Program-made: the position numbers and the translations under genes
Shown here: positions 2 to 316 of the stretch, one piece after another
Position numbering within the stretch: position 1 is the first letter of the stretch
How the letters are laid out: the number at the start of each line of letters is the position of its first letter
Assembly: GCF_003334765.1 (NCBI RefSeq)
Contig: NZ_QOWT01000144.1
Strand: one strand, 5' to 3'
From: Escherichia coli
Lineage (GTDB): Bacteria > Pseudomonadota > Gammaproteobacteria > Enterobacterales > Enterobacteriaceae
Length of the DNA stretch: 316 nt
The notes under the pieces: generated by a model
What the model was told of the DNA's origin: nothing
The model's database searches: none
What the model saw: only the letters and a program-made list of their open reading frames with translations

Positions 2-49
2 GGATATTTCCCTGAAACTACATCCCTTGTTATGCAGGGCCATAACCTC
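2..49 (-). other. Putative helix-turn-helix DNA-binding motif, first half only, truncated by the window edge
   Basis: Residues EVMALHNKGCSFREIS fit the L-x3-G-x-S-x3-I-(A/S) spacing that, from memory, begins many transposase and resolvase type HTH domains. The predicted recognition helix would lie beyond + position 1, so this cannot be completed from the window. Confidence 0.3.
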
Positions 50-316
50 TGTCCAACGCTGATGCCGTTTTTTGCGGATGTGCTGTTTAAGGCGTTCCAG
101 ACGACGGAGCGATGCTACAGGCACAGATATTTCTGGCTCAGGTGATTTCTTCAGTGATAACTCTCTGACAACAAGACGTATCAGAGGCATATATCTGTAC
201 ATCATTCGTTCAGGCTCATCACCAATATTTTTTAGCAGGTGCCATCGATCGGCCACCTGTCTGGCCTGAGGTGCACCTTCACGTGCTGCTGTCGCATAGA
301 CTCCACTGCGATCACG
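2..316 (-). CDS. Partial CDS, both ends outside the window: hypothetical basic DNA-binding protein with an HTH-like motif; possibly a transposase, recombinase or regulator, family unassigned
   Basis: Minus-strand frame beginning at + position 316 is open for all 105 codons. The other two minus frames hit stops within about 30 codons, and the + frames are broken by stops apart from one 65-aa ORF. The translation is Arg/Lys-rich and carries an L-x3-G-x-S-x3-I-S motif at its C-terminal side. Codons are mostly enterobacterial-type (CTG, CGT, CGC, GAA, AAA) with several rare ones. No homology search was possible, so function is inferred from motifs only. Confidence 0.6.

Follow-up and report, generated by a model that had tools for sequence, protein, structure and literature searches.

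Canonical transposases of the ISL3 family (NCBIfam NF033550; Pfam PF01610 plus PF14690) combine a zinc ribbon with a DDE_Tnp_ISL3 domain, in which a D..D..E pattern is followed by a lysine seven residues after the glutamate. An 8-bp target-site duplication is a property of elements of this family. One such element is ISEc38, a name applied by PGAP to the 539-amino-acid transposase WP_072003777.1, which we encountered in the literature only in mobile-element-finder inventories of E. coli genomes. A second system that bears on the present locus is IS21, whose transposase IstA (IS5376 is the example used here) has an N-terminal helix-turn-helix (HTH) region that binds DNA.

The stretch of DNA analyzed here (the window) is 316 nt long with a GC content of 49%, and many E. 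coli chromosomes carry it with 100% identity. The earlier note had proposed that the real gene in this stretch is a minus-strand frame that begins to be readable at position 316 and extends beyond both edges. Translation of the reverse complement from position 316 indeed yields 105 codons with zero stops (RDRSGVYATAAREGAPQARQVADRWHLLKNIGDEPERMMYRYMPLIRLVVRELSLKKSPEPEISVPVASLRRLERLKQHIRKKRHQRWTEVMALHNKGCSFREIS; positions 2-316, minus strand), and when the flanking sequence is added, this is the only meaningful frame and it runs past both window edges. An HMM search with the 105-amino-acid peptide matches NF033550 transpos_ISL3 (“ISL3 family transposase”) with an E-value of 1.3e-13 and 50.8 bits, and Pfam PF01610 DDE_Tnp_ISL3 with an E-value of 5.7e-4. 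The bit score lies under the 180-bit whole-protein cut-off because the peptide comprises only 105 amino acids. An intact relative with 95% DNA identity scores 374.3 bits against the same curated cut-off of 180, and it is through this full-length relative that the sequence belongs to the ISL3 family.

In strain 510016 the window corresponds to positions 5001-5316, within a coding sequence at 4330-5949 on the minus strand, and the frames agree. Position 5316 lies 633 nt (211 codons) from the start of this coding sequence, and thus the open frame is the frame of the gene and the window represents codons 212-316. Judged by homology, the open frame is genuine coding sequence in origin, an internal piece of a transposase gene. 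The feature is already known, as PGAP annotates it as “ISL3 family transposase, internal stop”. The parts of the window are as follows.

2 to 316, minus strand: codons 212-316 of a 539-codon ISL3-family (ISEc38-like) transposase frame, free of stops in the window and part of a pseudogene.
308 to 316, minus strand: R212-D213-R214, all three invariant in 42 full-length subfamily members.
311 to 313, minus strand: D213, predicted from the conserved DDE(K) pattern to be the second catalytic Asp of the DDE triad.
227 to 253, minus strand: ADRWHLLKN motif (codons 233-241) of the ISL3 catalytic domain, inside the PF01610 match.
50 to 187, minus strand: linker of low conservation (codons 255-300), lying between the first DDE half and an inserted HTH module.
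2 to 46, minus strand: start of the IS21/IstA-like HTH module with its first helix (codons 302-316, MALHNKGCSFREIS).

The state of the complete gene was read from nine relic copies sampled from 3841 matching places, eight of them chromosomal and from different backgrounds and one carried on the IncF plasmid pARG01. The window sequence occurs unchanged in four of these copies, namely L001 (strain 510016), L002, the plasmid copy L004, and L010. As the intact comparator we used a PGAP-labelled ISEc38-family copy on plasmid pE1246_1 (L003), the one that encodes WP_072003777.1. All nine relics lack an uninterrupted frame, as one to three internal stops break each of them, accompanied in some by a 2-nt insertion. 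In strain 510016, three codons are altered (positions relative to the window).

611 to 613: codon 113, TAA in the relic and TTA in intact ISEc38.
-85 to -83: codon 345, TGA in the relic and CGA in intact ISEc38.
-430 to -428: codon 460, TAA in the relic and CAA in intact ISEc38.

Over the sample, the lesions are distributed as follows.

L001: stops at codons 113, 345 and 460.
L002, L004, L007 and L010: stops at codons 113 and 460.
L005 (IHE3034): stops at codons 88 and 460.
L006: stops at codons 18 and 460.
L009: stops at codons 66 and 460, plus a 2-nt insertion at nt 1127.
L008: stop at codon 460, plus the same 2-nt insertion at nt 1127 as in L009.

The TAA at codon 460 is common to all nine relics and is located upstream of the predicted catalytic residue Glu508. 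Because this stop removes both E508 and K515, the relic yields no catalytically complete protein. TAA113 ends the frame on one side of the window in each of the four exact-match copies, and TGA345 (L001 type) or TAA460 (the others) ends it downstream, such that the open stretch around the window comprises codons 114-344 or 114-459, respectively. PGAP records the same locus as an “ISL3 family transposase” pseudogene with an internal stop in L001, L002, L005, L006, L007, L008, L009 and L010. The gene proposed earlier was therefore correctly placed with respect to strand, frame and extension, but it is a pseudogene in nine of nine relic copies examined and not a live gene.

Among the relics, variant codons include 12 synonymous, 30 nonsynonymous and 5 nonsense changes. 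Values of dN/dS are approximately 0.7-0.8 for the deepest pairs, which involve few substitutions and are not exactly 1, and within the window codons there are 0 synonymous and 7 nonsynonymous variants. The relic consensus compared with intact ISEc38 gives a dN/dS of 0.34. This substitution pattern fits that expected of a gene that was under constraint during its active life, that Q460* inactivated a single time, and that decayed thereafter. An ancestral CAA-to-TAA change at codon 460 would have cut off the catalytic Glu in the lineage of the window, after which nonsense and frameshift mutations would have gathered independently, lineage by lineage.

Gene-caller products found in large protein libraries are likewise relic fragments, with P0114 and P0116 ending at residue 459 and P0003 being frameshifted. 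A word-indexed protein search with the 105-amino-acid query recovered only fragments of fewer than 185 amino acids and missed the 539-amino-acid ISEc38 transposase, which was found by exhaustive search; the word-indexed search appears to favor short subjects for short queries.

All nine relics reside at the same locus, between a 5'-truncated gamma-glutamyltransferase-like (ggt-like) pseudogene and a zinc-ribbon gene. Homology between relic and ISEc38 ends abruptly at imperfect inverted repeats of 43-45 nt that are 1764 bp apart (TGTCAACGACGG...GTTCGTGACA), the same span as in ISEc38, and thus the relic is a full-length insertion sequence rather than a fragment. The arms are 43 nt long and 77% complementary in strain 510016 (4280-4322 and 6003-6045), and 45 nt long and 80% complementary in the intact comparator. 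No 8-bp direct repeats are present at the relic, whose flanks GGCCATAC and GATGTGAA differ, and no target duplication is evident at the comparator copy either. Because no direct repeats flank the element, a history of simple insertion is not demonstrable. In strain 510016 the relic with both inverted repeats (4281-6044) adjoins a ggt-like pseudogene without its N-terminus (3958-4250), and no other half of the ggt-like gene is found on the far side. Together, the missing repeats and the loss of the ggt-like N-terminus suggest an IS-adjacent deletion at the edge of a genomic island. The same island also carries inovirus Gp2-family and zinc-ribbon genes.

On the evidence of the nine sampled relics and their four exact window matches, the window is very probably a piece of a full-length but inactivated, ISEc38-like insertion sequence of the ISL3 family, its open frame being a stretch still free of stops in a decaying pseudogene. 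Relic and intact ISEc38-family copy share the 539-codon layout and, over the coding sequence, agree at 94.9% of nucleotides and 91.5% of amino acids, with 297/316 positions identical in the window. The lineage of the window differs from ISEc38 in being a fixed chromosomal relic with nonsense mutations, of which TAA460 is shared and the others are lineage-specific. By the ISfinder convention, isoforms are above 95% identical in nucleotides or 98% in amino acids. A divergence of about 5% from the PGAP-labelled copy would place the relic at or beyond the ISEc38 isoform limit.

Would the window instead derive from an intact, active ISEc38-type element, its minus-strand ORF would be a functional transposase gene. 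The frame is indeed open across the window, which retains every invariant residue of the family, and intact ISEc38-family transposase genes are present on many E. coli plasmids. However, these intact copies share only about 94% identity with the window: the bulk of plasmid matches (275 records) are 90-95% identical, and several of those listed at 94.0% are annotated “ISL3-like element ISEc38 family transposase”. Moreover, every examined copy with a window identity of at least 97.8% (at least 309/316) is the chromosomal relic with TAA460. In a spread sample of matches, all those at or above 97.5% bear the generic family name used by PGAP, as do the confirmed pseudogenes, whereas those at 94-95% are named “ISEc38 family”. 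An origin in an intact element is very unlikely in light of these comparisons.

The predicted protein resembles canonical ISL3 transposases in its zinc ribbon, its DDE_Tnp_ISL3 domain and its D..D..E pattern with lysine. In the intact ISEc38 transposase, the Pfam zinc ribbon (PF14690, Zn_ribbon_ISL3) matches residues 40-84 with an E-value of 1.1e-5, outside the window, and its C43 and C46 are invariant. Residues D163, D213, E508 and K515 (E+7) show no variation across 42 aligned subfamily members. Given what is generally known of DDE transposases, D163, D213 and E508 are predicted to form the DDE triad and K515 to be the usual basic residue seven positions after the glutamate.

In contrast to canonical ISL3 proteins, members of this subfamily are approximately 540 amino acids in length, such that the 370-position NF033550 model stretches over residues 31-535, and an insertion of about 115 amino acids, made up of a linker and the HTH, interrupts PF01610. 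The two PF01610 pieces in the intact ISEc38 transposase span residues 160-295 and 413-534, and Pfam HTH_7, HTH_38 and HTH_29 match between them at residues 293-338. NF033546 transpos_IS21 matches residues 303-398 (E = 1.6e-16), and residues 10-107 of the IS5376 transposase (PDB 8q4d/8b4h) match residues 302-398 (E = 1.6e-10). The linker-plus-HTH module, residues ∼296-412 of the protein encoded at L003 2330-3949 (minus strand), sits between the second Asp and the Glu.

Membership in the IS21 family was considered and rejected, as the score of 60.7 bits falls short of the NF033546 cut-off of 160 and nothing beyond the HTH at residues 303-398 is matched. Only the DNA-binding module is common to IstA and the ISEc38-type protein, whereas the catalytic domain of the latter is of the ISL3 type and no IstB-like helper is annotated in or adjoining the element. 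Searched exhaustively, 1.84 billion cluster representatives yielded 2298 relatives at E-values of 1e-30 or below. Almost all of the matches listed are about 540 amino acids long and align end to end, the exceptions being relic fragments and a few truncated entries. The best 150 cluster representatives align end to end at 33-43% identity, and the insertion is common to nearly all of them. A literature search for an ISL3 “insertion domain” found no description of an HTH insertion.

An active relative would be a 539-amino-acid DDE transposase with an N-terminal zinc ribbon and an RNase-H-like catalytic core that contains D163, D213, E508 and K515, into which an IS21-like HTH module would be inserted between D213 and E508. 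By analogy to the family, such a transposase presumably binds the terminal inverted repeats of approximately 43-45 nt and catalyzes excision and integration.

Within the window, conservation is concentrated in the catalytic domain. In the 42-member alignment D234, R235, H237 and N241 of the ADRWHLLKN motif are invariant, and conservation reaches at least 90% at A233 and L238. Over codons 255-300 the family consensus is almost entirely “x”. Because the family alignment exhibits essentially no conservation there, this segment appears to behave as a flexible linker. Its dN/dS relative to ISEc38 is 0.87, the highest of the gene, and 10 of the 12 amino acid differences between the window and ISEc38 are located in it, with the other two at the adjacent codons 253-254. 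Several linker changes involve proline (L266P, I274P and L284P, in the ISEc38 direction).

It is conceivable that the relic has been domesticated, with a truncated product (for example residues 114-459, which include D163, D213 and the HTH and lack E508) acting as a DNA-binding regulator or an inhibitor of transposition. If so, this would explain its persistence at one locus across phylogroups and in about half of E. coli genomes. Divergent lineages, among them IHE3034, STEC and APEC strains, keep the element full-length at one site together with its two inverted repeats, its dN/dS among relics is somewhat below 1, and gene callers predict ORFs that end at residue 459. Yet independent stops at codons 18, 66, 88, 113 and 345, as well as the 2-nt insertion at nt 1127, interrupt the region at points that differ between lineages, and the variants found in the window codons are exclusively nonsynonymous. 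In addition, some genomes keep only partial remnants (H74-H79), the window holds no promoter-like site, and the retention is accounted for by a neutral relic passed on vertically. Domestication is thus highly improbable, and an expressed zinc-ribbon/HTH protein without the catalytic Glu that regulates, or inhibits in trans, incoming ISEc38 copies would be equally hard to credit.

The openness of the frame is, by itself, a weaker argument than was first supposed. The earlier note had put the chance of such a frame below 1 percent. This is about right for one pre-specified frame, since the uniform model, (61/64)^105, gives 0.0065, but it overlooks that six frames were inspected. With a composition-based model the value is 0.0041, and the minus frame from 316 stays open in 0.25% of 20,000 dinucleotide-preserving shuffles of the window. 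At least one of the six frames is open in 5.7% of these shuffles, and therefore openness in a 316-nt window is only modest evidence of coding. All other frames are broken, as had been claimed, with stop counts of 4, 4 and 3 in plus frames 0, 1 and 2 and of 0, 5 and 9 in minus frames 0, 1 and 2. GC content at codon positions 1, 2 and 3 of the open minus frame is 0.63, 0.44 and 0.41, an unevenness as expected for coding sequence. The frame is missing from the ORF track, again as the note had said, for the mechanical reason that the ORF lister leaves out any ORF cut by an end of the source.

That non-coding DNA happens to lack stops in this frame, as the shuffles would allow, is already refuted by homology and barely deserves consideration, given the specific matches to ISL3 transposase models, the register with the annotated 539-codon transposase frame, and invariant family motifs that fall in exactly the minus frame.

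Plus-strand ORFs at 32-145 and 72-269 and a minus-strand GTG ORF at 232-315 were rejected as out-of-frame or antisense by-products, as homology resides solely in minus frame 0. A permissive Rfam scan of both strands produced sub-threshold chance matches only, namely the RAGATH-1 hammerhead (19 bits, gathering threshold 56.3) and sR12 (14.4 bits, threshold 38). A scan of the window found no promoter- or terminator-like site, and the 105-amino-acid peptide matched nothing significantly among PDB sequences (best E-value 0.51).

The window matches in 2950 of 5426 complete E. coli genomes, with a median of one place each, and 3476 of the 3841 places are chromosomal. The feature is an ordinary one: a widespread, vertically inherited and already annotated transposase pseudogene. 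It matters little beyond correct annotation, which requires that the window be read as minus-strand transposase coding sequence and that apparent plus-strand ORFs such as 72-269 be treated as antisense artefacts. A short window that is free of stops in one frame is no proof that the gene is live, and a dead copy may be called “ISEc38” by IS-finding tools. The relic nonetheless is a convenient vertically inherited marker of the E. coli island.

On the conjugative IncF plasmid pARG01 (NZ_CP049937.1, 111909-120224), a block holding a phosphotriesterase gene, the relic IS, zinc-ribbon genes and a Gp2-family gene includes a 100% match to the window and adjoins a copy of IS2. Judging from this gene content, a piece of the chromosomal island was apparently captured by the plasmid. 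Elsewhere the relic is eroding differently across lineages. The partial remnants noted above include the last 172 nt in VR50 and about 43% of the element in strains 3045 and MS15047, and one copy is interrupted by IS2 (EC24).

The gene-caller product P0114 (L011 3001-4167, Logan contig ERR6160597_639) is a chimera at the usual locus. It may reflect either a genuine deletion or recombination that joined the relic to an IS inserted in it, or else an artefact of short-read assembly. Its first ∼147 residues are IS21-family IstA (NF033546, 190 bits) that looks like IS100, and relic codons 219-459 follow in the same frame. The junction at relic codon 219 lies at about window positions 293-295.
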